Shown in pieces: positions 39,026 to 57,305 of a stretch of 64,000 bases of DNA. The DNA is taken from the NCBI GenBank assembly GCA_963769935.1, contig CAVYNY010000011.1, positions 352,001 to 416,000 of the forward strand. The letters run 5' to 3'. Position 1 is the stretch's first letter. Every line of letters starts with the position of its first letter. The notes beneath the pieces are model-generated. The model saw nothing but the letters and a program-made list of their open reading frames with translations. It made no database searches and was not told the DNA's origin. The stretch is from an uncultured delta proteobacterium (lineage in GTDB: Bacteria; Desulfobacterota; Desulfobacteria; Desulfobacterales; JAFDCJ01). The position numbers were made by a program, and so were the translations under genes.

Positions 39026-39331
39026 CACTGATTCCCGCATTAATGCAGAATACTTTGCAGCACAGGTTTTGCCCATGTGTCTCGTGCTCATAGCCACTGC
39101 GTATTGGCGAAATGCGTCTTTAGGCCAGCGGCTGATAAGATTACCTTGTAGCGGATAGACCTGAAAAAAGCAAGGCCGCGTTTATCATACGCCCGGTGCG
39201 CCAGGCGGGATGCGATTTAATTGTTTGCTTTAATCTGTATATCTGATATTTAATACAAAACTGTATTTATTTTAATCGATTTCAACAAATTCGTAATTTA
39301 TTACCTAAAATATTGGGACAAAATTTTATCC

Positions 39332-40855
39332 ATGGAACCGATTGAAGAAGTTACCCTGTTGTATGAAATCACTACGGCGCTCAATGAGCATCTGGATTTA
39401 AAAAAATCCCTTTACAAGGTGATGGACCTGTTGTCCAACTCTATGAATATGGTGCGGGGAACTATAACCATTTTAAACCCCTTGAGCAACGAGATCAACA
39501 TCGAGGTGGCCCACGGCCTGCCCCTGAATGCCATGGAAAGGGTAAAATACAAACTGGGGGAAGGGGTTACCGGGCGGGTGATTGAAACCGGCAAGGCGGT
39601 GGCCATACCCAAAATCAGCGAGGAACCTCTTTTCCTGGATCGCACCGGTTCGCGCCGGAAGAAAACGGGCCAGGAACTATCTTTTATCTGCGTGCCCGTC
39701 AAAAAGGGCAAACAGGTTATCGGCGCTTTAAGCGTCGATAAGCCCTTTGACAGTGCCTATCCCTTAAAAAGCGGGCAGAAGCTGCTATCCGTTATTGCCA
39801 CCATGCTCGCCAGCCATGTGATCAAGCTGGAAACAATCCGGATGGAAAAGGAGCGGCTGAAAGAGGAGAACCGGCGGCTGCAGAACGTGCTCAAAGACAA
39901 GTACAGCATCGGCAACATCATCGGCAACAGCAACAAAATGCGCGAAGTCTTTCAGATGGTCTCGCAGGTATCCCGAAGCAACGCCACGGTTTTGATCCGG
40001 GGCGAAAGCGGCACCGGCAAGGAACTGGTGGCCAACTCCATCCACTATAACAGCCACCGGGAGAAAAATCCGTTCGTCAAAGTAAACTGTGCCGCTTTGC
40101 CGACCACTCTGATCGAAAGCGAGCTTTTCGGCCATGAAAAAGGCGCTTTTACCGGCGCCATTAAACAGAAGATCGGCAAATTCGAATTGGCCCACAAGGG
40201 GACGATATTTCTGGATGAAATCGGATCCCTCGACCTGGAGGTTCAGGCCAATCTGCTGCGCATCCTGCAGGAAAAAGAATTCGAGCGGGTGGGAGGCCAT
40301 CGCACGATTAAAACCGATGTCAGGATTATTGCCGCCACCAATAAGAATCTGGAGCGCGCCGTGGAGGATGAAACCTTTCGGGGGGACCTTTATTACCGCT
40401 TGAATGTGTTTCCGATTTATCTGCCGCCGCTAAGGGAGCGCAAGACCGATATGCTGCTGTTGGCCGATTATTTTCTGGAGAAATATGCCGCGGAAAACGG
40501 CAAGGACATCAAGCGGCTGTCAACACCGGCCATCGATATGCTCATGGAATATCACTGGCCCGGCAATGTGCGGGAGCTGGAAAACTGCATCGAACGTGCC
40601 GTGCTGCTGTGCGAGGAGGGCGTCATTCACAGCTACCATCTGCCGCCGACCCTTCAGACCGGCCGGGAATCCGATACCGTGCCGTCCCTGTCGCTGGAGG
40701 ATGCCATCGCCAACCTGGAGCGGGAAATGATCATCGATGCCCTGAAAAATACCCGGGGCAATATCACGACTGCCGCCAAAATACTGCAGACCACGGTCAG
40801 AAAGTTTACGTACAAGGCACAGAGATATGGCGTGGACTATAAATACTACCGTTAA
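39332..40855 (+). CDS. NifA-like sigma-54-dependent activator (GAF-AAA+-HTH)
   Basis: GAF ([14 protein letters not shown]), [33 protein letters not shown] and C-terminal Fis-type HTH. Confidence 0.92.
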
Positions 40856-40940
40856 AACCGGTTTCTTAAATTCCTTGGGGTCTGATAATATTGAGAGCTT
40901 TTTTGATTTTCCGGTGGATTCGAGAAAAAGGGGGGGCCAA

Positions 40941-40970
40941 CAGCCGCCCGCCGAAAACGACGGGCGGCTG
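40941..40970 (-). terminator. GC-rich hairpin after glnA
   Basis: CAGCCGCCCG-ccgaaaacga-CGGGCGGCTG between convergent genes. Confidence 0.65.
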
Positions 40971-40984
40971 CTTGCGGGGCCGGG

Positions 40985-42397
40985 TTAAATGTCGTAGTAG
41001 AGATAGAACTCATGGGGATGGGGACGCAGCCGGACATCGTTGATTTCGTTTTCCGTCTTGTAGTCAATCCACATGTCGATGGCGTCCCTGGTGAAGACAT
41101 CGCCTTTCAGCAGATATTCCTGATCGGCCTTCAGAGCTGCCAGGGCTTCATCCAGCGACCCCGGCGCGGAAGGAATTTCGGCCAGCTCTTCCGGGGGCAG
41201 ATTGTAGATGTTTTTGTCCAGCGGATCCCCCGGATCGATTTTGTTCTGAATGCCGTCGATGACCGCCATCACCATAGCGGAAAAAGCCAGGTAACCGTTG
41301 CAGGAGGGATCGGGGGTTCTGAACTCGATCCGTTTGGCCTTGGGCGAAGTGGAGTACATCGGAATCCGGATAGCCGCGCTGCGGTTGCGGCTGGAATAGG
41401 CCAGGTTGACCGGCGCCTCGAAACCCGGCACCAGACGCTTGTAAGAGTTGGTGGTGGGGTTGCTAAAGGCGCACAGAGACTTGCAGTGCTTCAAAATACC
41501 GCCGATGGCATACAACGCCTCCTGGGAGACGCCGGCGTATTTGTCGCCGGCAAACAGCGGTTTGCCTTCTTTCCAGATGCTGATGTGGGTGTGCATGCCG
41601 CTGCCGTTATCTTCAAAGATCGGTTTGGGCATAAACGTAACCGTGTGGTTGTGGCGGTAGGCCACGTTTTTGAGCACGTATTTAAACCACATGAGCTGAT
41701 CGGCCATCTGCACCAGCGGTTTAAAGCGCATGTCGATTTCGGCCTGACCGGCCGTGGCGACTTCATGATGCTGGGCCTCGATTTCGATGCCCAGCTGCTC
41801 CAGGGTCAGAACCATCTCAGACCTCAAATCCTGAAACTTGTCCATGGGCGGGACCGGAAAATAGCCTTCTTTGGGCCGCGGCTTGTACCCCAGGTTGGGT
41901 CCCTCATCGCGACCGGTGTTCCAGGAGCCCTCGATGGAGTCGATCTCGTAGAATGCGCCGAAGCGATTGGATTCAAATCGGATATCGTCAAAGATAAAAA
42001 ACTCCGCTTCGGGACCGATGTATACCACATCCCCAATGCCGGTGTTTTTCAAATAGGCATCGGCTTTGCGAGCGATGTTCCGGGGATCGCGGCTATAGGC
42101 TTCGCGGGTGACCGGGTCAACGATATTGCAGATTAACACCAGGGTCGGTGTGGTATAAAAGGGATCCATTCTGGCGGAATCGGCGTCCGGGATAACCAGC
42201 ATGTCACTGGCATGAATCGGCTGCCAGCCGCGAATACTGGATCCGTCAAAGCCGAAGCCGTCTTCAAAGCTGGATTCTTCCAACTCCCTGATAGGTACGC
42301 TGAAGTGCTGCCAAAGCCCCGGATAATCCATAAACCGTAAATCGACCATTTTTGCGTCGTTTTCCTTTGCCATGTCCAATACTTCTTTGGGGGTCAT
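40985..42397 (-). CDS. glnA: Type I glutamine synthetase
   Basis: [34 protein letters not shown] and NRSAAIRIP motifs; adenylylation site NIYNLPP. Confidence 0.97.
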
Positions 42398-42416
42398 TTT
42401 TTTTCTCCTTTGATTT

Positions 42417-42740
42417 TAGTTAATAGTTGATAGTTAGTAGTTGATAGTTAGTAGTTGATAGCAGATAGTTCATAGTTGATAGGTAAAAGGCTAAAGGCTA
42501 AAGGTAAAAGGTTAAAGGCAAATGGTATTACTTTACGGTATGCGCTTTGCTCTATGCTCCTTACCCGCTCACCTTCCCAAATTCTTATCTTCTTCTTATC
42601 CTCTCTCCTTTCCGCCTTCCTACCCTCTCACTTTCTGATCTTCTTATCTTCTAACCTTCCCACCATCTTATCTTCTCGCCTTCTCTCTTTTATCGTCTGT
42701 CCTCTGACCTCTGTCTTCTATATCTATACTATGCCCTTTG
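42417..42740. repeat. Stack of at least five short-period arrays between glnB and glnA
   Basis: (TAGTTGA/TAGTTAG)~9, (GYWAAAG)5, TATGCKC, TCTTATCT-type 8-mers, (TCTGWCY)3. Confidence 0.85.
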
Positions 42741-42742
42741 CT

Positions 42743-43096
<354 letters not shown>

Positions 43097-43104
43097 CTAT
43101 GTTA

Positions 43105-43213
43105 TTGAATATTCAAGATTGCAAATTGAATATTTGTGGATGTCGCCTTGCTCTGTCCTTTTTAAAATGGAAACGATCCTTAAATATTCAATATTCAACC
43201 TAAAATATTCAAT
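43105..43213. repeat. ATTGAAT/ATTCAAT inverted heptamer element
   Basis: ATTGAATATTCAAGATTGCAAATTGAATATTT ... AAATATTCAATATTCAACCTAAAATATTCAAT. Confidence 0.8.
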
Positions 43214-43284
43214 TGTTACCGGATCTTAATCACATTTCTATAGATTTTTTTGCCACAAAATACACAAAAATAAAAACTAAATTC

Positions 43285-44583
43285 CTATGATGCCTGTATC
43301 TCAAAGGCGCGTTCACCGTGGATGGAATTGTCGAGCCCGATGATTTCACTTTCTTCCTCCACCCGCAGACCTCCGGTTATAAATTTGGTTAGATAGGTGA
43401 CTATCAGGGTGCCGACGGCGGTGAACCCCGCCGTAGCGATGATTGACACGACTTGAAACCAGAGTTGTTTCGGATTGCCGTAAAACAACCCGCGTCCCGC
43501 CTCATTTATGGCCGGGCTGGCAAATAATCCGGTAGCCAACGCCCCCCATATGCCGCACATGCCGTGGACGCCGAACGCATCCAGCGAATCGTCATAGCCG
43601 ATTTTCTGTTTGATTTTGGCGACACTATAAAAGCCAAGCAAGCCGGCGCCGAGACCGATGAGCAAAGCGGCCGGCATATTGACAAACCCGGCGGCCGGCG
43701 TGATGGCTACCAGCCCGGCGACGATGCCGGAGGCCAGGCCCAGCACCGTCGGCTTTTTTTCCACCACCCACTCGGCAAACATCCAGGCCAACGCGCCCAT
43801 GGCGGCCGAAGTGTTGGTAACCAGAAAGGCCGAGCCGGCAATTCCGTCCGCCGCCAGCTGACTGCCGGCATTAAAGCCGAACCAACCGAACCACAACAGG
43901 GCGGCTCCCAGCGCCGTCAACGCAATACTGGAGGGAAACATGGCTTCCCTGCCGTAACCGATTCTTTTGCCCAGCACCAGCGACAGCACCAATCCCCCTA
44001 CGCCGGCATTTATATGAACAACCGTACCGCCGGCAAAATCCAGAGCGCCCATGCGGCCCATCCAGCCGCCGCCCCATACCCAGTGAGCGATCGGGCAGTA
44101 TATGAACGTAACCCAGAGTACCGTAAATACGATCCAGGAGGAAAACTTCATCCGGTCCACGATCGAACCCAGCACCAGCGCCACGGTGATGCAGGCAAAC
44201 GTCATTTGAAACAGGGCAAACACATAGGTCGGTATCGTGCCCGAAAGACTGGCCACGCCGATGCCGGCCATAAAAACGTTTGACAAACCGCCGATGATGC
44301 CCGCCTTGTCCGGTCCGAAAGACAGCGTATATCCCCACATCATCCAGATGACGCTCGCCAGGCAGTAAGCCACCATGGTCATGGCAAATGTATTCAGCAG
44401 GTTCTTATAGCGGGACATGCCGCCGTAAAACAATGCCAAACCGGCCGGAGTCATCATCATGACCAGCGCGGTCGATACAATCATCCAGGCCGTATCACCG
44501 GAATTCAAACCGTCGGCAGCCAACGCCGGGGAGACAGGTACGGCAAGCAAAACCGCAGCGGTCGGCAAACATTTCAGATTCAT
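43285..44583 (-). CDS. amtB: Ammonium transporter
   Basis: GLALFYGG, FQMTFA, HWVWGGG, DFAGGTVVH, WFGWFGFNAGS and DDSLDAFGVHG motifs. Confidence 0.96.
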   Translation of the reverse strand: MNLKCLPTAAVLLAVPVSPALAADGLNSGDTAWMIVSTALVMMMTPAGLALFYGGMSRYKNLLNTFAMTMVAYCLASVIWMMWGYTLSFGPDKAGIIGGLSNVFMAGIGVASLSGTIPTYVFALFQMTFACITVALVLGSIVDRMKFSSWIVFTVLWVTFIYCPIAHWVWGGGWMGRMGALDFAGGTVVHINAGVGGLVLSLVLGKRIGYGREAMFPSSIALTALGAALLWFGWFGFNAGSQLAADGIAGSAFLVTNTSAAMGALAWMFAEWVVEKKPTVLGLASGIVAGLVAITPAAGFVNMPAALLIGLGAGLLGFYSVAKIKQKIGYDDSLDAFGVHGMCGIWGALATGLFASPAINEAGRGLFYGNPKQLWFQVVSIIATAGFTAVGTLIVTYLTKFITGGLRVEEESEIIGLDNSIHGERAFEIQAS

Positions 44584-44608
44584 TTTTTTAATTTCTCCCC
44601 CCCTCTTC

Positions 44609-44748
44609 GATTGAATATTGAAGATTGTCAATTGAATATTTAAGGTATTCTATCGATTTATTTTTCTTCCCTTAACTCCACTTTTAGAAGATTTGAATCA
44701 GATTAAAAATCCTTAATTCGTCATTCGACAATTGTCATTTGTCATTCC
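44609..44748. repeat. Heptamer element with an ATTGAAT left arm and a GTCATTY right arm
   Basis: Fills the glnD-amtB gap. Confidence 0.7.
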
Positions 44749-44750
44749 AT

Positions 44751-47390
44751 TTATATGCTCGGCAGCCTTTCAAGGACAGCCGACTTTATATGCGCTACCT
44801 GATCCTCCGAATCCACTTTTTGGCCGTGGAGATCCCAGACATAAAATACATCTACCACCTGGTCGGCTTTGGTCGCTATTTTGGCGACCCAGATGTTCAG
44901 ATCGCAGTTAAACAGGGCATCCGTGATGCTGAAAAGCAAACCGGGAAAATCATACGTAAAAACTTCGACAATGGTAAAAAAACTGGAGCTGTTATTGTCC
45001 ACTTTCACACGATGGGGTAAGCGACGCATGCCGTTTTTGATTTGGCGGTAAGCGGACATTTTTTTTCTGACGGCCGCTGCCAGGCTTAACTCTCCGGATA
45101 AGGCCGCAGAAAGATGGCCTGCGGTCCGCTGCCATTTCTCATCTTCCATTATTTGATCCGGCGGCGGATTGACCTCAAAAATATCCAGAGCGATGTTGTT
45201 GCGCCAAGTGAACACCTGGACATCGAGAATGTCGATGTTATTTAAGGTAAATACCCCGGCAATTTTTGAAATCAGCCCGGGGCGGTCTTTGGCGCAGATG
45301 GTGACCGAGCGGGTGTTCGCGTCGGCTGAGCGTTTGACATCCCACAGGAAGTCGGCGTCGCCAAGTTGGCGATAAAGCGCAATATGTTCCAGGATTGACT
45401 TGGCCGGCATGTAAAGACGGTAGCGCGGAGACATTTTGTCGAACAGAGCGGAAGTGGCCTGGGCTTCAAGGGAGGGGACGGAACCGAGGATTATTTTTCT
45501 TTTCTGCTCAATGACATTGACGGCCTCTTCGGTGGCCAGTTCTCCTTTCTCCAGTACGTTTAGAACTTTGAGAAAAAAATCCCGCAGCAAAGCGGCCGTC
45601 CAGTCGTTCCATGCCGTCGGGCCGGTTGAGATGGAGTCGGACACGGTCAGCAGATACAGCATTTTCAACCGTTCAATATCTTTAATTTTTCTGGCACTGG
45701 AAATGGCTGTTTCTTCATCATTAATATCCCGGCGGGTGGCGGTTTTGATCAAGTGGAGGTGATGCCGGACGAGAAAAACGACGCTTTCGACGTCCCGGAC
45801 TTTCAGGCCTTTTTTGGTGAGGAGTTTTTCGATGATGGCGGCGCCTTTTTCCGCATGGTCTTCGGTCGCATCCCCTTTGCCGATGTCGTGGAGCAGCGCG
45901 GCCCAGAGCAAAATATGTTTGTTCTTGAGCTCACGGTAGAGCTGGGCGCATAGCGGCTCCAGACTGCTGTCCAAGGTCGTGCCGAATTTTTTGATGGTCT
46001 GGACGGTTCGCAGCAAATGTTTGTCCACCGGGTACAAATGGTATTCATCGTATTGGATGCGGTTTATGACACCGCGAAAGGCCGGCAATAACCGCACCAG
46101 AAATCCGGTGTTCAGCAATTCATTCAACACATTCAGCGGCGCGACCGGAGCTGCCAGAATGCGTTCGAAAGATTGCACCACCGGCTCGGAGTCGCAAAAT
46201 CGTCGATTGGCCAGATGGGAAAATTCTTTGACCAGTCTTTTGGCCTCTGCGCTCAGCGGAATCTGCAATCGGGCGCTTTCTTCAAATATCCTGATTAAAA
46301 GATCCGGAGATTCAATAATTTTTTCGGGGGCCGCAAAATTAAGCATGCCCCATTCGATTACTTCCAGACCGTCGACATCGCTCTTTTTCTGGGATTTCCT
46401 TCTCCTCTGGCGCTTTTTTTCAAGGCCCAGCTCATACAAAAACATCAGATGCTGCTGCTTCAGCGATTCCATGCACCCGTGCAGGTCTCCCAGAAACCGC
46501 TCCACCGGCTGTTGCCCATTGTTGGCTTTATAGTTCAATGTCTCGGCCAGCTTGATCTGGTTTTCAAAGTGCAGCTGATCGCATTTTCGGCCGCAAAGGT
46601 GGTGCAGGTGGTTGCGCACCAGCCAGATAAATTTCAGGCAGCGCCTTAGGGTTCGGTACTCCTCATGGGAGAGCAGTCCGAAGTATTCAAGATCGCGCGG
46701 CTCCTTCAGGTTAAACTCGATCTGTCCGATCCACAACATGGTATGATAGTCCCGCAGGCCGCCCCGCCCCTCCTTAAGGTTGGGTTCGAGAAGATAGGTC
46801 GAATCGCCGAAGTGGCCATGCCGCATTTCATTGTTCTGAACGAGCCAGCTAATAATGGAGCGGGATTTTTTGCGGATAATCTTTTGACGCAACTGCTCCA
46901 TCAGATCAGAAAATAGATGCGACCAGCCGCAGATAAACCGTGCATCCAGGACCGGGGTCAATATGTCGAAATCCCTTCCGCAAAGCTGCAGAGACTCTTT
47001 GAGGGACCGGGTGGCGTAACCGACATCCAGACCGATATCCCACAAAGGATATACAATCTCCCGGATCAGGTTCTCGGCTTGATCCGGCACCCTTTTTTTG
47101 AATAAAAACAACAGGTCGACATCGGAATGAATGCATTGTTCCTGCCGGCCATAGCCGCCCAGGGCAATTATGGCATACGGATTTTTGCTGATATCCATGC
47201 GGGGACCGACCATGCTGGTCTCAAAAGCCTGCCTGAAATAATCATCCAGAATGCGGGCATGCCTTCTAAGAAAGTCAGGCTCTTTGCCGTCTAATAGACG
47301 GTCTATCAGCGCCCCGGTTTTCTGCTGCAGCTCCGCAGATGCATGTTCAAAAATGTTGTCCATATTAATATTCTGGGTAGCCGGTAACAT
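44751..47390 (-). CDS. glnD: [Protein-PII] uridylyltransferase
   Basis: ALGGYGR..SDVDL, EPNLKEG.GGLRD, HD domain (LLHDIGKG) and two ACT domains. Confidence 0.95.
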   Translation of the reverse strand: MLPATQNINMDNIFEHASAELQQKTGALIDRLLDGKEPDFLRRHARILDDYFRQAFETSMVGPRMDISKNPYAIIALGGYGRQEQCIHSDVDLLFLFKKRVPDQAENLIREIVYPLWDIGLDVGYATRSLKESLQLCGRDFDILTPVLDARFICGWSHLFSDLMEQLRQKIIRKKSRSIISWLVQNNEMRHGHFGDSTYLLEPNLKEGRGGLRDYHTMLWIGQIEFNLKEPRDLEYFGLLSHEEYRTLRRCLKFIWLVRNHLHHLCGRKCDQLHFENQIKLAETLNYKANNGQQPVERFLGDLHGCMESLKQQHLMFLYELGLEKKRQRRRKSQKKSDVDGLEVIEWGMLNFAAPEKIIESPDLLIRIFEESARLQIPLSAEAKRLVKEFSHLANRRFCDSEPVVQSFERILAAPVAPLNVLNELLNTGFLVRLLPAFRGVINRIQYDEYHLYPVDKHLLRTVQTIKKFGTTLDSSLEPLCAQLYRELKNKHILLWAALLHDIGKGDATEDHAEKGAAIIEKLLTKKGLKVRDVESVVFLVRHHLHLIKTATRRDINDEETAISSARKIKDIERLKMLYLLTVSDSISTGPTAWNDWTAALLRDFFLKVLNVLEKGELATEEAVNVIEQKRKIILGSVPSLEAQATSALFDKMSPRYRLYMPAKSILEHIALYRQLGDADFLWDVKRSADANTRSVTICAKDRPGLISKIAGVFTLNNIDILDVQVFTWRNNIALDIFEVNPPPDQIMEDEKWQRTAGHLSAALSGELSLAAAVRKKMSAYRQIKNGMRRLPHRVKVDNNSSSFFTIVEVFTYDFPGLLFSITDALFNCDLNIWVAKIATKADQVVDVFYVWDLHGQKVDSEDQVAHIKSAVLERLPSI

Positions 47391-47567
47391 TAAAATTTTC
47401 CCCGCCTGATTACTCCGCCCTGAAAATCAGAGACATCCGGTTTAGAAAACACCAAATGGTCAAATTGAACCTGATGAAAATTTGCACTGTTGCCCGGACG
47501 GATGAATTGCCTTTTTCAAAGAATCCTATCCAATCTCGAACATGCTATCTTTCAGCGCGGATTAATC

Positions 47568-47583
47568 AGCAATATGTGTGCCA
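47568..47583 (-). promoter_or_regulatory. sigma-54 -24/-12 promoter for glnD-amtB-glnB-glnA
   Basis: Minus strand TGGCAC-ACATA-TTGCT, full consensus match. Confidence 0.85.
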
Positions 47584-47719
47584 TGGCATGGCTAGACTCA
47601 GAAAAGGTAATGGTTTCAATGGATAGAACGATTAAACCCAATAAAAAATAAAAATAAGTTATTACAAATTTGCTGAAAATTTGTTAAAAATATTACAAAT
47701 TTGTAATTCCTCTTTTTTA

Positions 47720-50638
47720 TTATTTGCCGTCGAACACGCTTTGCCAGATTTCGGCCACTCTTTGCTGCAGGTGGCTGTATCTTTCCCGCGGGACACTGGA
47801 GGGCTTCTCCTGCAGACTGAGTTGATGCGCGGCGGCGCGGTAGATTAAATAGGCATGTTTGAGCAGGTGAGCGGTATACTCATCCAGCACACCGGTTTCG
47901 CTCAAGGATTGAAGCAGGCGGACATTGTCGGTCCATTTCAGCAGGCCGGGATGTTTGTGGGAATTGAGCAGCACGAGATACTGCACCAGAAACTCAATAT
48001 CCACCATGGCTCCGACGTCCTGTTTGAGGTCAAAAACCTCCGGGGCCGGGTTGAGAAGTTCTTTGCGCATTTTCTCGCGCATCCGCACGACCTCTTCTTT
48101 CAGCCTGGTTTCAGGCCGTGAACGGGCAAGCACTTTTGAGCGTATCGTTTCAAAGCGTTCGGCCAATATTTCATCCCCGCAGATGGGTCGCGCCTTGATC
48201 AGCGCCTGATGTTCCCAGGTCCAGGCCTCGTCGAGCTGGTAATCTCCAAAAGCCTTGATATGGCTGACCAGTATGCCGGAACTGCCGCTGGGCCTCAAAC
48301 GCATGTCGATTTCGTAGGCCTTGCCGGCGCGGGTATGAGCGGTGAGGATGTGAATGACGCGCTGGCCGAGTCGGTTGAAGAACTGCGCGCTGTCGATGGC
48401 ACTCCTGCCGCCCCGGGTTGGCGCGCCGGTTCCCGCGTGCAGAAAAACGAGGTCAAGATCCGACCCATAGCCGAGTTCCAGTCCGCCGAGCTTGCCGTAA
48501 GCGACAACGGCAAAGCCCCGCTGGCAGGCCCTGTTCTCCAGCCGGCAGGCCGGGACACCGTGTTTTGCCACCAGATGATTGAAGGCCAGATCGACCACCT
48601 CTTTAAGAATGGTTTCGGCGATTGCCGAGAGATAATCACTGACCCGCATCAGCGGCAAGGTGCCGGCAACATCGGCCGTCGCCACGCGCAGGACATTGAC
48701 CTGTTTGAAAATGCACAGCTGTTCAATCTGGTATTCCAGGTCGTCAGGCGCTACCAGGTCAAGTCGCCGGCGCAAACCGACCTGCAATTCGCGACTTTCA
48801 GGGGGCAGATAAAGGGTGCGCGCATCCAGCAGTTCATCCAGCAGCACCGGATGGCGCGCCAGAAAAGAGGCAATCCAGGGACTGGCATTCGACAGTTTCA
48901 CCAGATGGGAGAGGGCGGTGGGGTTCTCCAGCAGCAGGGCCAGGTAGCTGGAGCGCCTTTCAATGGTTTTGATCAAATCGACAATGCGGCGCAGGGTGAT
49001 CAGCGGATATTCACAGGCACTGATCTCTTTTAAAAAAAGGGGCATCAATTTATCAAGCCGCCGGCGCCCCCTGGAACTCAACGCCCGGGTTGCCGGATCG
49101 TTTTTTAAATAACCCAAAAGCTGCAGCACTTCATTCGGTTGCTCATAACCCAGTTCGGCAAGCATGCCTGGGGCCTGCCGGTCATCCACCGGATTTTGCC
49201 AGATGCCGTCCAACCGGTCCTCAGTTTTCAGCCGCGGATCCTCGCTGTCACCGGATGCCAGGAGCATCTGGAAATGGTCGTGAACGCTTTTTCGCCGATT
49301 ATTCAATGTCGCATCAAATGCCTGGATCGCCGCAAAACCCATGGAATTCGCCAGGCGCAATTGTCCGATTTCATCGGACGGCAGCTGGTGGGTTTGCTGA
49401 TCGGCGCACTCCTGGAGCCTGTTTTCGGTGCGGCGCAAAAAAATGTAGGCCCCGGTCAGCTCATCGCACACCGCCTGCGGGATTTGCTGTTCATCGGCCA
49501 GCGCTTTTAAAACATTCAAGATGCCGGTCTGCTGAAGAGACGGAACCACGCCGCCGCGGATCAGCTGGAAAATCTGGCCGAAAAATTCGATCTCCCGGAT
49601 TCCGCCCGGTCCCAGCTTGATATCGTTTGCCATGCCTTTACGTTTGACTTCCCGGGTGATCATCTGCTTCATTTCTCTTAGCGACTCAAAGGCGCTGTAA
49701 TCCAGGTATCGGCGGTAAATAAACGGATGAAGCTGTTCAAGCAGATGCGCCCCGGCAGCTTTATCGCCGGCCGCAGTTCTGGCTTTGATCAGGGCATAGC
49801 GCTCCCATTCCCGCCCTTGGTCCTGGTAATAGTGCTCCAAGGCATTAAAATCCATGGCCAACGGACCGCTTTCGCCAAAAGGGCGCAGGCGCAGATCAAC
49901 CCGAAACACAAATCCATCGGCCGTCGGATGGCCGATGACTTTTATCAGGCGGCGGCACAGCCGCGAAAAAAAATCCTCATTGCTCACCGAACTGCCGGCC
50001 CCGCGGGTTTGGCCGGCCTTTGGATAGGCGAAGATTAAGTCGACATCGGAGGAAAAATTGAGTTCACGGGCGCCCAGCTTGCCCAGGCCTAAAACAACCA
50101 GATGCTGTTTTGAGCCGTCGGCGGCCGTCGGCACCCCCAAGGTCGCACACTGCCATTGGTAAAGAACGTCGAGAGTCTGTTCCAGGCAGGCATCCGCAAA
50201 AGCAGACAATTCCGTCATGGTTTCCAACAGATTCGCCCAGCCCGCCAAATCCCGCCAGGCAATGCGGGTCAGCTCGCGACGGCGACAGCGGCGCAGCAGA
50301 CCCATCAACGCTTGTTCATCATTGACACCCGCCGTCAGCTCTTTGAATTTGCGCTGATACTCGTCGGGTTGGAGTCTGCGGATCAAATCACCGCTTGCCA
50401 CAAGGTCGCCCAAGAGGGACGGCTCGCGCGTGCACCCGGCGGACACAAACTCACTGAAGGCCAATACCGGCGCCAGGCTTTTGAGTATTTCGGGATTGGT
50501 GAAGGGGGGGATGCCGGCCGCCGCCGCCGAGGTTTGAAAGGCCCGCCAGCGGATCCGGAAGGCTTCAGCGAGAGGTTGGGGGAGATTGTCGGGAAATGTC
50601 CATTGTCCGTTGTCGGTTGTCCGTTGCATATTATCCAT
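47720..50638 (-). CDS. glnE: Bifunctional glutamine synthetase adenylyltransferase/deadenylylase
   Basis: GKLGARELNFSSDVDL, RVDLRLRPFG, GKLGGLELGYGSDLDL and DMRLRPSG motifs. Confidence 0.96.
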   Translation of the reverse strand: MDNMQRTTDNGQWTFPDNLPQPLAEAFRIRWRAFQTSAAAAGIPPFTNPEILKSLAPVLAFSEFVSAGCTREPSLLGDLVASGDLIRRLQPDEYQRKFKELTAGVNDEQALMGLLRRCRRRELTRIAWRDLAGWANLLETMTELSAFADACLEQTLDVLYQWQCATLGVPTAADGSKQHLVVLGLGKLGARELNFSSDVDLIFAYPKAGQTRGAGSSVSNEDFFSRLCRRLIKVIGHPTADGFVFRVDLRLRPFGESGPLAMDFNALEHYYQDQGREWERYALIKARTAAGDKAAGAHLLEQLHPFIYRRYLDYSAFESLREMKQMITREVKRKGMANDIKLGPGGIREIEFFGQIFQLIRGGVVPSLQQTGILNVLKALADEQQIPQAVCDELTGAYIFLRRTENRLQECADQQTHQLPSDEIGQLRLANSMGFAAIQAFDATLNNRRKSVHDHFQMLLASGDSEDPRLKTEDRLDGIWQNPVDDRQAPGMLAELGYEQPNEVLQLLGYLKNDPATRALSSRGRRRLDKLMPLFLKEISACEYPLITLRRIVDLIKTIERRSSYLALLLENPTALSHLVKLSNASPWIASFLARHPVLLDELLDARTLYLPPESRELQVGLRRRLDLVAPDDLEYQIEQLCIFKQVNVLRVATADVAGTLPLMRVSDYLSAIAETILKEVVDLAFNHLVAKHGVPACRLENRACQRGFAVVAYGKLGGLELGYGSDLDLVFLHAGTGAPTRGGRSAIDSAQFFNRLGQRVIHILTAHTRAGKAYEIDMRLRPSGSSGILVSHIKAFGDYQLDEAWTWEHQALIKARPICGDEILAERFETIRSKVLARSRPETRLKEEVVRMREKMRKELLNPAPEVFDLKQDVGAMVDIEFLVQYLVLLNSHKHPGLLKWTDNVRLLQSLSETGVLDEYTAHLLKHAYLIYRAAAHQLSLQEKPSSVPRERYSHLQQRVAEIWQSVFDGK

Positions 50639-50658
50639 TGTCAGCTAATCCGGATTCC

Positions 50659-51114
50659 CTAATCCGATGACGGCGGCAGCAGCTTATAAATTTCAAGCAA
50701 ACGACTGCCCAAGGTGGCCGCCAGATGCTTAAAGAAAATTATTCCGTTGGCCGGATCTTCTTCCAGCACTTTGCCAAGCTTATTACAATCTGTTACAAGC
50801 AATTTGGTCTGCTCGACACATTCGGCGGAGGCCGAATATGTGTCACGTCCAATTAAGCTGGACCAGCCGAAGGCCTCCCCGTTTTTGCCGATATCGTATA
50901 CCATCCGGCTGCCTTCACCGATGCTCAACTTTACCCTGCCGTTGAGCAGGATGTAAAAAAACCGGGCCGGATCATTTTCACGAAACAGGACGTCACCTTT
51001 TTCATGGGATATCATGCGAGATATTTCCATGATTTTCTTGACGAAATCCATGCTCGTTCCCAATAGAAGATCTGATTGCTTGATATACATGATTTTCACC
51101 GCCTCACCGGACAA
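50659..51114 (-). CDS. Stand-alone cyclic-nucleotide-binding domain protein
   Basis: GDVLFREND..FYILLNGRVK..GEAFGWSSL..SASA; no HTH. Confidence 0.82.
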   Translation of the reverse strand: MSGEAVKIMYIKQSDLLLGTSMDFVKKIMEISRMISHEKGDVLFRENDPARFFYILLNGRVKLSIGEGSRMVYDIGKNGEAFGWSSLIGRDTYSASAECVEQTKLLVTDCNKLGKVLEEDPANGIIFFKHLAATLGSRLLEIYKLLPPSSD

Positions 51115-51305
51115 TCCGATTTGTCTTTAGCCTTATGCGGCTTAATATAAAATCAAGTGTCCGGCATGTCAAAACATAAATTGTTACATTTTTGTAGCTT
51201 GCTGGGCGCTTAAAAAACATTAATGCCATTAAAAATTGACAAAGCGAGCAGCTGCTTTTAAAGTCCGCCGTGGTTTTTGCCTTGAAAAAAGTCCAAAACC
51301 GATTG

Positions 51306-51321
51306 TGGCACGCCTATTGCT
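51306..51321 (+). promoter_or_regulatory. sigma-54 -24/-12 promoter for the glutamate synthase operon
   Basis: TGGCAC-GCCTA-TTGCT, full consensus match. Confidence 0.85.
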
Positions 51322-51668
51322 GCAGTCATGACCATCATGCGAGATTGATGATACCGGGTGCGGCCGGGGCATTAAGGCTCTCAATAAGCGAGTTGTGAAA
51401 TTAATTAATTTTAATATTTTCCTAATCCGAAAAAAGTGATATAAGCTCAGAACCGAATTAGCGAAATTTTTTGATTGGGCTATAATTTGGAATTTTTGAA
51501 ATTTACCTGACTATGCCCGCACGGGCATTTTAAACAGTGTTGGTCGGCAATTGAAAACTCAACATTTTGCCCCGTCCGGCTGCGACGGGTTCCAGCCTAT
51601 TTAATGCCCCGCGTCATTTAAATGCATGCCCGTCGAAATGAATTCCATTCATAAAAGGAGTTGAAAAA

Positions 51669-52799
51669 ATGTGCCGTTTATTTTCAATAACGAGCAGAGA
51701 TCCGCTGTCTCCCATGGTCGCCCTGCAGGCTCTGGATGTCATGCGCGAAGGCCATGACTGTTCCGGTGTCGGGATTTTTTTGCGTGATCTGGCCGGACCG
51801 TTTGAGGAGATCAAAGACGCCCCGATTCTATCCGGTATTTTCAGCGATTCCGGGTTGAGGCGCCTGGATTCCTTTATGATGGATGTCGGCTTTATGACGA
51901 AATATAAAATTTCCATCAAATTGCCTAAAACACCGCCGCCGGGCGTGCCCAAGCGGGATGTCTATTTAATCCGGGCCTACGAGTACCCGGAGGAATGGGA
52001 AGAATTAAGCCGGCAGGAACTGTATGACAGGCTGTTGATGATCCGGCTGCAGCTGAGGGCCATGGGTGAGGAAAAAAACGACATGATCGTCTATTCCTTC
52101 TGGCCGGATGTGATTATGATCAAGGAAATCGGGGATCCCCTGCTGGTGGCGGAGCATTTAAATCTTGACCGCAAAGAACTGCATGCCCGGGTTATCATGG
52201 CCCAGGGCCGGCAGAACACCAACTATGCCATTACGCTTTACGCGTGTCATCCTTTCTTCATTCAGGGCTATTCAACGATGACCAACGGGGAAAACACCGC
52301 CTTTGTTCCGATCAGATCCTATCTCGAATCCCGGGGATTTCCGGGATACTCCGGCTACCAATCGGATTCGGAAGTTTTCACCCACATCCTGCATTATACG
52401 ATCAAAAAGCTTGGCCTGGGAATCGAAACTTACAAGCACGTCATTACGCCGCTGCAGGATGAAGATCTGCAGGATCACCCCAATGCCCATTTCTTAAAAA
52501 ACCTGAAGCAAACCTGCCGGCAGTTAATTATTGACGGCCCCAATTGCGTCATCGGCTGTCTGCCGGACCACAGCGTTTTTATGGTGCAGGACCGCAAGAA
52601 GCTCCGGCCGGGGGTTGTGGGCGGCAGGCCCGGAATGTATGCATTTGCTTCAGAAATTTGCGGCCTGGATGCCGCAATACCGAATCGTGATAAACTCCGG
52701 GACTTTCAGCCGATGTATTTGGATACGGTCGTCGTTGGTCCGGATCGACAGGAGGTGTCGATATGCTCCCAGACAGACCCATTAACCCTTCCACATTAA
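51669..52799 (+). CDS. Glutamate synthase subunit 1 (class II glutamine amidotransferase domain)
   Basis: N-terminal MCR (Ntn nucleophile), RQNTN..ACHPF, NGEN, DSEV and DRKKLRP motifs. Confidence 0.85.
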   Translation: MCRLFSITSRDPLSPMVALQALDVMREGHDCSGVGIFLRDLAGPFEEIKDAPILSGIFSDSGLRRLDSFMMDVGFMTKYKISIKLPKTPPPGVPKRDVYLIRAYEYPEEWEELSRQELYDRLLMIRLQLRAMGEEKNDMIVYSFWPDVIMIKEIGDPLLVAEHLNLDRKELHARVIMAQGRQNTNYAITLYACHPFFIQGYSTMTNGENTAFVPIRSYLESRGFPGYSGYQSDSEVFTHILHYTIKKLGLGIETYKHVITPLQDEDLQDHPNAHFLKNLKQTCRQLIIDGPNCVIGCLPDHSVFMVQDRKKLRPGVVGGRPGMYAFASEICGLDAAIPNRDKLRDFQPMYLDTVVVGPDRQEVSICSQTDPLTLPH

Positions 52800-54400
52800 G
52801 CGTTAAAGACCTGCCGTGGCAGATTGTATGGGCTAAAGATAAATGTACCCTTTGCGGCAAATGCACTGCCGTGTGTCCCGTCAACGCGATTGAATTGGGG
52901 GTGTTTCGCAAACGCGAACTGCAACCGCCGGTGGACGGATTCATAGTGCCGCCCACCAGTGTCTATAAAGCTTACTACGGTATCCGCCAAAGGACCGATC
53001 CGGCCTACAAGTGTGTCGGCTGTGCGATGTGCAACCTGGTCTGTCCCAACGACGCCATCGCGCCGGCGCGGGCCGATGAAACCGACAAATTTCGCTTTCA
53101 TGTCGATCGGGGCGGACAGCCGCGCCGCCGGGGCGGCCGGCGCAATGTGCAGGGCGGAATCCTGGATCGGTTAAAATTTATCCGCATTTCAATGCTGACC
53201 GACCCCGCCCTGGATGCAGGACGCCACGAATTTGAATTGCGCACGCTTCTGGGACGGGTGCTGCCCCCCGAAGAAAACCTGAAGTTCCTGCAGAATAACG
53301 GCTGGATCCCGCCGGTCAGAGAAATCTACCCCCTGATCATCGGCAGCATGTCTTTCGGCGCGCTGTCGCCCACGATGTGGGAAGGGCTTCAAATGGGGGT
53401 GGCCTATCTCAACGAGGAGCTCGGCATGCCGGTGCGTATCTGTACCGGTGAAGGCGGCTGTCCGCCGCGGCTATTGCGCTCGCGGTTTTTGAAGTATGTC
53501 ATTTTACAGATCGCCAGCGGCTATTTCGGCTGGGATGAAATCATTCATGCCCTGCCCGAGATGAAGGAGGATCCCTGCGCCATTGAAATCAAGTACGGCC
53601 AGGGGGCCAAGCCCGGAGACGGGGGCCTGCTGATGTGGTACAAAGTCAACAAGCTGATTGCCGCCATCCGGGGGGTGCCGGCCGGGATCAATCTGCCCAG
53701 TCCGCCGACCCACCAAACCAAGTATTCCATTGAGGAATCCGTTGCCAAAATGATTCAGTCCATGTACATGGCCTGGGGTTTCAGGGTGCCGGTTTATCCA
53801 AAAATATCGGGCACTTCAACCGCTCTGGCGGTTTTAAACAACCTGACCCGCAATCCCTACGCGGCAGGACTCGCGATCGACGGTGAGGACGGCGGTACGG
53901 GCGCCGCATACAACGTATCCATGAATCATATGGGACATCCCATTGCCAGCAACATCCGCGACTGCTACCTGAATCTTGTCAATCTGGGCTTCCAGAATCA
54001 GGTTCCGCTGTTTGCCGGCGGCGGGGTCGGCAAAACCGGAAATCTGGCGGCCAATGCCGCGGCCCTCATCATGCTGGGCGCCAGCGGTATTCAAATCGGC
54101 AAATACATCATGCAGGCGGCGGCCGGATGTCTGGGATCGGAGTCGGATCGCTGCAACATCTGCAATATCGGTCTTTGCCCCAAAGGGATTACCTCCCAGG
54201 ATCCACGCCTGTATCGGCGTCTGAATTCCGAAGATGTGGCCCAGCGGGTGGTGGATGTGTACCTGAGCTTTGATACTGAATTGAGAAAAATAGTGGCCCC
54301 CCTGGGACGCTCCACATCTCTGCCGATCGGGATGTCGGATGCGCTGGGTATCGATGACTATAATGCAGCGGAGAGACTGAAGATTAAGTATGTGGTGTGA
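52763..54400 (+). CDS. Glutamate synthase FMN-binding subunit with 4Fe-4S ferredoxin motifs
   Basis: Two CxxCxxCxxxCP, MSFGALS, TGEGG, EIKYGQGAKPG.GG, GGTGAA and C..GITSQD motifs. Confidence 0.9.
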   Translation: MLPDRPINPSTLSVKDLPWQIVWAKDKCTLCGKCTAVCPVNAIELGVFRKRELQPPVDGFIVPPTSVYKAYYGIRQRTDPAYKCVGCAMCNLVCPNDAIAPARADETDKFRFHVDRGGQPRRRGGRRNVQGGILDRLKFIRISMLTDPALDAGRHEFELRTLLGRVLPPEENLKFLQNNGWIPPVREIYPLIIGSMSFGALSPTMWEGLQMGVAYLNEELGMPVRICTGEGGCPPRLLRSRFLKYVILQIASGYFGWDEIIHALPEMKEDPCAIEIKYGQGAKPGDGGLLMWYKVNKLIAAIRGVPAGINLPSPPTHQTKYSIEESVAKMIQSMYMAWGFRVPVYPKISGTSTALAVLNNLTRNPYAAGLAIDGEDGGTGAAYNVSMNHMGHPIASNIRDCYLNLVNLGFQNQVPLFAGGGVGKTGNLAANAAALIMLGASGIQIGKYIMQAAAGCLGSESDRCNICNIGLCPKGITSQDPRLYRRLNSEDVAQRVVDVYLSFDTELRKIVAPLGRSTSLPIGMSDALGIDDYNAAERLKIKYVV

Positions 54401-54414
54401 GTTGGAGAGAACCC

Positions 54415-56764
54415 ATGTCTAACCGAGAAATAAAAGGCAGCGCAACCTTATACAAGATTTCCGGCCGTGTCGCCGGACAACGTGTTGACTCCAGGATTAT
54501 TGAAGAGCAGATTCAAACGGCGGTGGAACAGGGCCACCGGAGACTGCAGATCGAGGCTTTCGGCCAGCACGGCATTGGGGGACGATTGTGGCGGGCCGGC
54601 AATGAAGCGGTTCACCTTGAAATCGTCGGTCAGCCCGGACAACGGGTCGGATCCATGGGATTTGCCAACACCTCCATCGAGGTCCTCGGACCGGCATCCG
54701 ATGATGTGGGATGGCTCAATGCCGGCGCGGAGATTGTAGTGCACGGCAATGTCGGCAATGGATGTGCCAACGCCATGGCCCAGGGCAAAATTTATGTTGC
54801 CGGCAACCTCGGTGCGCGGGGCATGACCATGACCAAGCACAACCCGCGCTTCGATCCGCCGGAACTCTGGATACTGGGTTCGGTTGGAGATTACTTCGGT
54901 GAATTTATGGCGGGCGGCGTAGCCGTGGTCTGCGGCCATGAAGCTCAAAACAAAGAAAATATTCTCGGCTACCGGCCATTGGTGGGAATGGTCGGCGGCA
55001 AAATATTCTTCCGCGGATCTCACGGGGGGTACAGCGAATCGGATGCCAAGCTGGTTACCATCGGCGATGATGACTGGAACTGGCTGCTTGAAAACCTGCG
55101 GCTCTTCCTGGATCGCATCGGCCGATCCGAGCTGGCGGCTCCGTTTTCAGAGCGCAGCCGCTGGCAGTTGCTTGTCGCCCGCTCCCCTCAGGAAAAAATC
55201 GCCCGTCCGATGCGCTCGTTGCAATCGTTTAATTCGGAAGTCTGGCAAAAGGAACTCGGCCAGGGCGGCCTTATTGGAGATCTCTCCGATCTGGATCGCA
55301 GTCAGATCGCCCTGATCACTTCGGGATATCTGCGGCGGTTTGTTCCGGTTTGGGAAAACCGCAAGTACGCTGCACCCTGCGAGGCGACCTGTCCCACAGG
55401 AATACCGGTGCAGGAACGCTGGCGATTGATTCGCGCAGGCCGGGTCGATGAAGCGGTCGACCTGGCGCTTGCCTACACGCCGTTTCCGGCATCGGTGTGC
55501 GGATACCTGTGTCCCAATTTGTGCATGCAGTCATGCAGCCGCCGGATTGCGGCGATGGCACCCGTGGATACCACCCAGCTGGGCAAGGCCAGCATCAATG
55601 CCAGAGCTGCCGGAACTGCCGCCCGAATCGGACAAGAAAATAGCCGTTATCGGCGGCGGACCGGCCGGTATATCCGTTGCCTGGCAGCTGCGGCTGAAAG
55701 GACACCAGGTTGTGATTTATGAAATGGCGCCGGATATCGGCGGTAAATTCAGCCGCATTATTCCTGCCAGCCGGATTCCCAAAGAAATCATTGCCGCCGA
55801 ACTGCAGCGGGTGAAAGAGGTCTTGCCCCATGTCCATCATCAGAAACCTCTCGCCAAACAGGACATCAAACAACTGCGCGAAGATTTTGATTTTGTGGTG
55901 ATTGCCACCGGCGCCCAAAAGCCCAGAACCTTACCGATACCGGGCAATGAGCGGGCGGTGACGGCGCTGGAATTTCTCCAAAAGGCCAAAGCCGACACGG
56001 CCAAAGTCGGCGAACAGGTGGTTATTATCGGCGCCGGCAATGTCGGCTGCGATGCAGCCACCGAAGCCCAGCGACTCGGTGCCCGGGAGATCACCCTGTT
56101 GGATGTGCAGGAGCCGGCATCTTTCGGCAAGGAAAGACAGGCGGCCGAAGCCATCGGTGCCAAATTCAGATGGCCGGTCTTCACCCGGGAGATTAGCGCC
56201 GATGCGGTCATCCTCAAAACCGGCGAGAAAATTGTCGCCGACACGGTGATCATATCCATCGGCGATGTGCCGGATCTTGAGTTTCTACCCGATGATGTGA
56301 CCACCGAAAAAGGCTTCGTGAAGGTCAACGATCATTTTTTAACCGCCGATCCCAAAATATTTGCCATCGGCGATGTCGTCAGACCCGGACTTTTGACCGA
56401 TGCCATCGGCGCCGGGCGCATCGTCGCCCAGACGATCTGCGATATCTTAGAGGACAAGCCCCCGGAAGTCCGCCGACGTGAAATGATCGATCGCAACCGG
56501 ATTACCCTGGAATATTTTGATCCCCGGATTACCGAATACAGTGATCTGGATCACTGCGGGTCCCAGTGTTCATCCTGCGGCGCCTGCCGCGACTGCGGCA
56601 TCTGCGTGGCGACCTGCCCCCGGCATGCCATCAGCCGGCAAGAATCGGATGGCGCGGATTATGAATATGTGGTAGCTGAAGATCTTTGCATCGGGTGCGG
56701 ATTTTGCGCCGGTGCCTGCCCGTGCGGGGTATGGGACCTGGTGGAAAATACGCCGATCGGATAG
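54415..56764 (+). CDS. Glutamate synthase GXGXG domain fused to a GltD-like FAD/NAD(P)H oxidoreductase and ferredoxin; one +1 frameshift near 55603
   Basis: GQHGIGG and GDYFGEFMAGG, then PCEATCP and CPNLC, then IGGGPAG, GAGNVGCD and C-terminal 2x4Fe-4S motifs. Confidence 0.85.
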
Positions 56765-56819
56765 GCGCCTGCGCCTAATTTTATGCTATAGATACAGAAT
56801 TGTGTTGATTAAATTCGAT

Positions 56820-57243
56820 GGTTTCAGGTGAGGTGTCAGAATCGGCGGCAGTTATCTGGTGTTCCGTGATGGTGGATCAGAAATGCCGGCACGTTTTAAA
56901 TTCAAAAATCAACAAAGGAAAAAGTCCAAATTCCAAGCACCAAATTCCAAATAAATCCCAAATTACAACAATTAATGACCAAAACAGACTAAACCAGGAA
57001 AAGGTCGCTTTTTTATTTATTTTTCCGTGTTTTGGAATTTTGAATCTTGGTCATTGTAATTTGTTTGAGCCCGCCCTGGTGCGACGTGCTTGGGTTACAC
57101 TTTTAACCTGCTCTGGTTTGGGCGTGAATGCAGTAAATACTTCAAGCGGCAAATCGGTCTGGGCCAGGGATTTGTCATTTGGAATTTGTGATTTTTAGCA
57201 GACCCGGCGACGCCGGAGGCGCTGGCACCTGACACATGAAACC
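56820..57243. repeat. Nested repeat elements between the glutamate synthase operon and purF
   Basis: Outer GGTTTCAGG..GGTGTCAG / CTGACACATGAAACC, inner CAAATTC/GAATTTG arms, and a 100-bp insert at 57068-57167. Confidence 0.75.
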
Positions 57244-57305
57244 GATATCTCAGCTCAAGTGCCTGAAATTTTAAAGCATTTCTATATCAGAGGAGTCTAA
57301 ACATT

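Follow-up and report, generated by a model that had tools for sequence, protein, structure and literature searches.

How does a bacterium switch on its ammonium-assimilation genes when neither NtrC nor nitrogenase genes are recognizable in its genome? The question is raised by a locus in an uncultured delta proteobacterium of the Desulfobacterales (assembly GCA_963769935.1, contig CAVYNY010000011.1, positions 352,001 to 416,000), in which the gene for a NifA-like activator of σ54-dependent transcription lies beside glnD, amt, glnB, glnA, glnE and a split glutamate synthase (glt). We refer to this whole stretch of 64,000 nucleotides (nt) as the window and number positions from its first letter. 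The original prediction was that the NifA-like protein is the master activator of ammonium assimilation, in place of NtrC. We put at about 0.78 the probability that the sites described below are rightly assigned to this activator, a protein of 507 amino acids (aa) encoded at 39332..40855 (plus strand). It would be the main activator of nitrogen assimilation here, predicted to bind conserved TACA-W4-TGTA sites and thereby to do the job of NtrC. Such sites lie ~80 to 120 nt upstream of four σ54 promoters.

The activator is a DVU1949/Nlh1-like, one-component protein with a GAF domain, a σ54-type AAA+ domain (PF00158, E 7.9e-75) with an intact GAFTGA motif, and a helix-turn-helix (HTH) domain (HTH_8, PF02954). 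Its recognition helix reads T-x-R-x-x-x-Y-K, and its GAF domain has a single cysteine (C120). The genome has an rpoN gene over cut-off. No other member of the activator's clade is present in the genome: the protein scores 91 bits with the clade HTH profile vs 50 for the next-best protein, and 269 vs 101 with the GAF profile. Its closest relatives are 70 to 92% identical and mostly labelled Desulfobacterales.

A strict σ54 pattern has exactly two matches in the whole window: the −24/−12 elements TGGCACACATATTGCT (47583-47568, minus strand), upstream of the glnD-amt-glnB-glnA operon, and TGGCACGCCTATTGCT (51306-51321, plus strand), upstream of the glt operon. As originally predicted, each is preceded by an exact TACA-N4-TGTA palindrome, a putative enhancer site, at nearly the same distance (47694..47705, gap of 110 nt, for glnD; 51185..51196, gap of 109 nt, for glt). 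The glnD promoter has in addition a weaker, degenerate partner site (47663..47674) that lies 31 bp from the main one with a gap of 79 nt to the σ54 element; it is likewise a predicted enhancer site and scores 12.9 with a matrix that we built from 80 unique sites taken from relatives' glnD and activator promoters only. A third exact copy (39254..39265) precedes the activator gene, where there is no σ54 promoter, and is likely an autoregulatory site through which that gene is repressed. A weak degenerate partner, AACAAATTCGTA (39284..39295), was found by eye 30 bp away. Three exact copies in the window compare with a mean of 0.22 in dinucleotide shuffles, and none of 100 shuffles reached three; over the whole 7.99-Mb genome we counted 24. 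A perfect IHF-type match between site and promoter was present in one promoter and absent from the other two checked.

The sites are conserved in relatives. For glnD we examined 500 nt of upstream sequence at each of 19 fetched loci, namely those with enough flank and a glnD at least 50% identical. Nine of these regions carry an exact TACA-W4-TGTA, and 15 a site with at most one mismatch; a σ54 element is present in 12, with the site 5′ of it in 11. The gaps between site and σ54 element cluster at 108-110 nt (8/19 loci) and 78-80 nt (7/19 loci), and relatives' promoters include nine cases of paired sites 29-31 bp apart. All four glnD loci that lack the site have glnD within an amt-glnB-glnD operon. 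In a control set, the regions upstream of operon-internal glnA, we found a site in 3 of 27. Upstream regions of activator orthologs carry the site (at most one mismatch) in 60 of 79 cases and a σ54 element in none.

We also applied the matrix to regions that had not contributed to it. Upstream of glt, the site is found in 13 of 27 regions vs 0.5 in shuffles, and 10 of the 27 also have a σ54 element downstream of it; a σ54 element precedes glt in 16 of the 27 relatives. Distant activator homologs have the site upstream in 22 of 55 cases (shuffles, 0.9), and coding controls have it in 1 of 134. Fixed gaps to σ54 elements of 108-110/78-80 nt and of 119-121/89-91 nt recur across families. Thus, the motif proved to be conserved in orthologous promoters. 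Because only about half of the glt promoters keep it, the word "master" in the original prediction is incomplete, whereas a role in activating ammonium assimilation is supported both by this conservation and by the distribution of the protein (below).

Which other genes might belong to the regulon? A matrix scan of the genome identified 4 of 897 σ54-like elements with a site 70-120 nt upstream and none with a site downstream. Three of the four are nitrogen operons: glnD, glt and a second operon, glnB2-amt2-gltB (G000:C10:147818-156586; L084 9819-18586), which has paired sites and a σ54 promoter with gaps of 121 and 91. Its gltB encodes a full-length glutamate synthase; the genome therefore has both split and full-length forms. 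In an independent set of glnB2 upstream regions, sites were present in 9/9 and stood beside a σ54 element in 8/9, and further amt2 loci have both in 6/10. Around glnB2-amt2-gltB we also observed a divergent, unrelated GAF activator and a nearby branched-chain-type ABC transporter.

The fourth promoter lies on contig C14 and drives an unannotated 63-aa open reading frame (ORF) with four cysteines in two CxxC pairs (G000:C14:106205-106396, minus strand; L185 8206-8397). It has a σ54 promoter and paired motif sites with gaps of 100 and 131. The ORF is divergent from a por-like 2-oxoacid:ferredoxin oxidoreductase operon; the promoter was considered for that operon and rejected, since the σ54 site is oriented toward the small ORF instead. 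The protein matched no Pfam family over cut-off and gave only sub-threshold zinc-ribbon and RING matches. Counting the genome of the window itself, 8 of 201 order-level genomes encode it, and among 12 distinct homologous loci 8 have the site and 7 a σ54-like element, by pattern. Conservation of protein and promoter extends across the genus and to a few further families. The 63-residue protein as a target of this regulon is new in this analysis.

In the genome, no nifH or nifDK gene and no NtrC gene scores over cut-off. The best NtrC-like gene (C13:231940) reaches 498 bits with a cut-off of 558.6 and was rejected by score, by recognition helix and by context (it adjoins a kinase and a DASS transporter). 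The RNTL helix typical of NtrC and GnfM occurs in none of the 61 activators of the genome. Canonical NtrC sites have no match in the window at one mismatch, and a GnfM-like site gave one loose match across five promoters. A canonical NifA site, TGT-N10-ACA, occurs once in the window's glnD promoter but in only 1 of the 19 relatives' glnD upstream regions and is therefore not conserved. The searches of the whole genome agree with the proposed independence from NtrBC and with the lack of nif genes.

The same pattern extends to the phylum. In a sample of 200 genomes, an ortholog of the activator (E 1e-170 or better) is present in 85, of which 60 have no nifH; the protein does not track with nif. 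NtrC/GnfM-type genes were found in 23 of the 200 genomes (RNTL in 21 of the 23, the other two being unreadable by the script). These 23 genomes span 16 family codes, and none has the activator ortholog, vs 9.8 expected. With a wider set of homologs that includes nif-type proteins (E 1e-125 or better), 0 of 122 co-occur with NtrC/GnfM. This mutual exclusion of activator and NtrC is new in this analysis.

The idea of such a regulon is not new. Kazakov et al. (2015, PMC4641369) computationally predicted a nitrogen regulon and autoregulation for the one-component activator DVU1949 of Desulfovibrio vulgaris Hildenborough and other Desulfovibrionales, with the same motif. DVU1949 is, like the activator here, a one-component σ54 activator with GAFTGA whose regulon covers nitrogen metabolism and transport, and both its own operon and the ammonium-transporter operon DVU1231-1233 are among the predicted targets (PMC4641369). 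Listed DVU1949 sites such as ATTACAAAATTGTAAT and TTTACAATTATGTAAC have the same core as the window sites; the comparison with our matrix was made by eye, with sites of the T/GACA-W4-TGTA/C type, entries 1-30 and 88-117 among the 117 of supplement 3 (PMC4641369). The targets found here (amt/P-II/glnD, glutamate synthase and the activator's own gene, with glnA within the glnD operon) match the DVU1949-type set. We take DVU3392 to be glnA, and DVU3290-3292 and DVU1823-1821 to be glutamate synthases. Supplement 4, as far as it is accessible, has no rows for DVU3290-3292, DVU1823 or DVU1952 (PMC4641369).

The two systems also differ. DVU1949 comes from a different bacterial order and lies behind iorAB, whereas the activator here sits inside the nitrogen cluster; the ior genes are on other contigs of the genome, so there is no co-transcription with the activator. 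Co-transcription with iorAB is reported for 4 of the paper's genomes and is not universal there either (PMC4641369). The sites here are nearer to a perfect palindrome than those of DVU1949 and have fixed spacing. By eye, the DNA-binding-domain table in supplement 2 seems to have its first three labels rotated: row "DVU1949" matches the plasmid-encoded protein and row "DVU0569" matches L141, an iorAB-linked relative, and the table is not usable as labelled (PMC4641369). In the literature searched, which excludes most subscription journals and bioRxiv supplements, the name DVU1949 occurs in one paper, and neither that protein nor this regulon in Desulfobacterales was seen to have been studied experimentally.

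In our careful tree, made from a hand-chosen 31-row subset of 146 extracted proteins after a quick tree of 78 rows, the activator shares a clade (99/98) with L141, which is linked to iorA-iorB, apart from the plasmid nif regulator and from proteobacterial NifA. L141, 47% identical to the activator, serves here as a proxy for DVU1949, whose own sequence is not in the tree, and the clade also holds paralogs. We fetched 60 loci that cover the range of identity; at many of them the homolog adjoins amt, glnB, glnA or glt in varied gene orders, and at some it adjoins nif genes. In a diazotroph (L116 15331-15507), the nifH σ54 promoter, beside a clade member, has a pair of TACA-W4-TGTA sites upstream with 30 bp between them; the family can therefore also serve nif genes. 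One relative has two tandem copies of the activator gene (L068 9956-13342), 75% and 76% identical to that of the window. An activator with 64% AAA+ identity (C16:59746) was considered as a clade paralog in the genome and rejected, its gene being frameshifted and in a pilus/type II secretion cluster; this σ54 activator gene (G000:C16:59376-60711; L085 5377-6712) encodes a membrane-like N-terminus.

Better-studied regulators share parts of the system. AnfA of Rhodobacter capsulatus and VnfA have the same GAF-AAA+-HTH architecture, and AnfA binds paired TAC-N6-GTA sites in vivo and in vitro, both of which are needed for full activation (PMC7294313). The AnfA consensus covers TACA-N4-TGTA, and the paired sites here fit it. 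AnfA and VnfA, however, control alternative nitrogenases and have GAF cysteine motifs, whereas the activator here has one GAF cysteine in a genome in which we find no nitrogenase. The closest solved GAF domain (E 1.6e-25) is that of Nlh1 of Aquifex aeolicus (PDB 4G3K and 4G3W), a protein outside our tree that, according to a review, is speculated to control nitrogen assimilation rather than fixation, via an unknown ligand (PMC9866876). NtrB/NtrC of enterobacteria and GnfL/GnfM of Geobacter sulfurreducens resemble the system in acting from paired upstream sites on the σ54 promoters of amt and glnB/glnA operons, an activity that here is predicted (PMC2995071). They differ in being two-component systems whose regulator has a receiver domain, an RNTL helix and TGC-N11-GCA-type sites, in place of the GAF domain, the T-x-R-x-x-x-Y-K helix and the other site found here (PMC2995071). 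NifA (TIGR01817) and DVUA0143, the nif regulator encoded on the D. vulgaris plasmid, have the same domain order as the activator and are 40-41% identical to it (plasmid nif regulator, 41%). The activator is NtrC-like in its predicted working, yet by defining features it is neither NtrC nor NifA nor AnfA; the system fits best among the predicted regulons of DVU1949 type, as a new member.

Could the protein nevertheless be a true NifA, kept after the loss of nif genes or accompanied by nif genes missing from the assembly, with the assimilation genes as secondary targets? NCBIfam nifA is its best match (520 bits, under the TIGR01817 cut-off of 528.85), some clade members adjoin nif clusters (L116 and L147), and predicted DVUA0143 sites (CTACA-W4-TGTAG) are near-identical to those of DVU1949 (PMC4641369). 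This explanation is largely refuted by the distribution of the protein, most carriers of which have no nifH. The separate clade and the unconserved TGT-N10-ACA site also count against it, and we regard it as very improbable. Hardly more credible is the proposal that the palindrome serves some unrelated regulator as its operator, such as a repressor of the divergent dinB gene or of the cNMP-glnE promoter, with σ54 elements nearby by accident. The gene dinB is indeed divergent from the activator gene in many close relatives, and the 51185 site is 12 nt from a strong σ70-like −35 box. The site persists 5′ of the activator gene in 40 of 57 loci that have no neighboring dinB, however, on which ground we rejected a dinB/SOS explanation; the fixed gaps to σ54 elements recur across families, and sites of this type are bound by AnfA, which belongs to the activator's protein family (PMC7294313).

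A further alternative is that these promoters depend, wholly or chiefly, on a different enhancer-binding protein for their activation, and that the window's activator is secondary. We consider this unlikely, although candidates are available: the GAF activator G000:C10:147818-149380, the two-component regulator C31:11837-13243, which has a similar recognition helix, and a DVU3220-like response regulator. The C10 protein is encoded divergently from glnB2-amt2-gltB, but it occurs in only 2 of 19 relatives' amt2 loci (1.5 kb flanks only), and the motif is present in most of them. The C31 regulator is the next-best protein to the clade HTH profile (50 vs 91 bits) but lies among non-nitrogen genes. 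NtrC in this role is opposed by the subthreshold score, the absence of RNTL and the gene context described above. The motif, moreover, precedes the window activator's own gene in most of its orthologs.

Several observations weigh against assigning the regulon to the window's activator. Binding of the sites by this protein is predicted from sequence, and the motif, being common to the nif regulator DVUA0143 and nif-type paralogs, does not by itself name one protein. The genome has ~60 other σ54 activators, one of them the GAF type divergent from the second glnB-amt operon; Desulfobacteria in general have many (PMC12316311), and in D. vulgaris the two-component regulator DVU3220 is also listed for amt-glnB-glnD (PMC4641369). 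By matrix, the site is missing upstream of glt in 14 of 27 cases and upstream of distant homologs in 33 of 55, and a looser genome scan of 40-300 nt gave 6 sites upstream vs 3 downstream of σ54-like elements. The genome is 96.7% complete and 5.4% contaminated, which leaves the absences of nif and NtrC short of proof, and the genomes of a phylum are kin, so that the exclusion count overstates independence.

On the assignment that we prefer, with the activator as the main regulator, dimers of the protein would occupy tandem sites with a spacing of ~30 bp, or three helical turns. When nitrogen runs short, the GAF domain would let go of the ATPase, by analogy with what is described for Aquifex Nlh1, and the freed activator could then assemble an ATPase ring and contact σ54 polymerase via DNA looping. 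This would turn on glnD-amt-glnB-glnA, the split glutamate synthase, the second glnB-amt-gltB operon and the 63-aa four-cysteine protein, while the sites 5′ of the activator's own gene, with no σ54 promoter, would serve to repress it. How might the shortage be perceived? By analogy with related regulators, we somewhat favor a signal read via the uridylylation state of GlnD/P-II, our first guess because glnD and a P-II protein with Tyr51 belong to the regulon and because P-II proteins regulate AnfA (PMC12093980) and Azospirillum NifA (PMC9866876). The alternative is direct ligand sensing, as proposed for Nlh1, the nearest solved GAF domain; here the ligand would be 2-oxoglutarate or glutamine, which is possible but less probable. 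A complex prediction with GAF dimer, P-II trimer and ATP gave a score of 0.00 and a mark of 0.32, and we used it neither for nor against binding.

The genes of the cluster were identified by NCBIfam and Pfam matches, which bore out the domains and genes named in the original prediction. The operon on the minus strand begins with glnD, for the P-II uridylyltransferase (44751..47390; TIGR01693 over cut-off), followed by amt, for the ammonium transporter (43285..44631, with the true start probably at 44583; TIGR00836 over cut-off), glnB, for P-II (42743..43081; PF00543, with Tyr51 from alignment), and glnA, for type I glutamine synthetase (40985..42397; TIGR00653 over cut-off). The spacers 42400-42740, 43090-43280 and 44600-44750, and likewise 56800-57300, are full of short degenerate repeats (ACTATCA-like and TCAAT-like units, for example) that recur elsewhere in public contigs. 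Upstream of glnD, also on the minus strand, are glnE, for glutamine synthetase adenylyltransferase (47720..50638; NF008292 over cut-off), and, 5′ of it, a gene for a stand-alone cyclic nucleotide monophosphate (cNMP)-binding-domain protein (50659..51114; PF00027) that is only a candidate member of the system. A σ70-like promoter for these two genes (51144..51172, minus strand) matches 11 of 12 consensus positions, a type of match found 13 times in the region vs 11.4 expected; it lies only 12 nt from the glt enhancer site (51144-51196). An effect of that site on glnE as well is possible, and transcription running on from glnE could provide a basal level of glnD-glnA expression; we found no terminator-like match between glnE and glnD. 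Contigs of three RNA-library runs jump ~224 nt within the cNMP-domain gene (50663-50888), which suggests a strain with a deletion.

The split glutamate synthase, on the plus strand, was identified in part by family matches. Domains identify the second gene (52763..54400) as the ferredoxin and flavin mononucleotide (Glu_synthase, PF01645) subunit and the third (54397..56764) as the GXGXG and iron-sulfur/flavin adenine dinucleotide oxidoreductase subunit. The first gene (51669..52799) has no family match in NCBIfam or Pfam; its N-terminal cysteine and operon position suggest the glutamine-amidotransferase role, and orthologs are present in 39 of 60 other order-level genomes. A single extra base, at 55605, breaks the third gene into two ORFs. 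All four public runs have contigs that leave this base out (at all depth in three and about a third in the fourth), so that the frameshift is probably an assembly error; a comparison of the frame in relatives was uninformative, and the run contigs were used instead.

These results confirm and extend a type of regulon predicted in 2015 and add one small uncharacterized target, with no new mechanism. In this phylum an annotation as "nifA" should not be read as a sign of nitrogen fixation, since 60 of 85 carriers have no nifH. The mutual exclusion with NtrC/GnfM suggests that lineages differ in which of two alternative master systems they use. It would be a bolder and rather doubtful generalization that most Desulfobacterota use a kinase-free GAF activator, strictly alternative to NtrBC and routinely mislabelled NifA, and that the zinc-finger-like protein of 63 residues in the regulon here, previously unnoticed, acts post-translationally as a new nitrogen effector, perhaps by tuning the divergent 2-oxoacid:ferredoxin oxidoreductase or glutamine synthetase. 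For nitrogen sensing in sulfate reducers without NtrBC, the system offers a testable answer: one activator, a defined site, a fixed geometry and four promoters.

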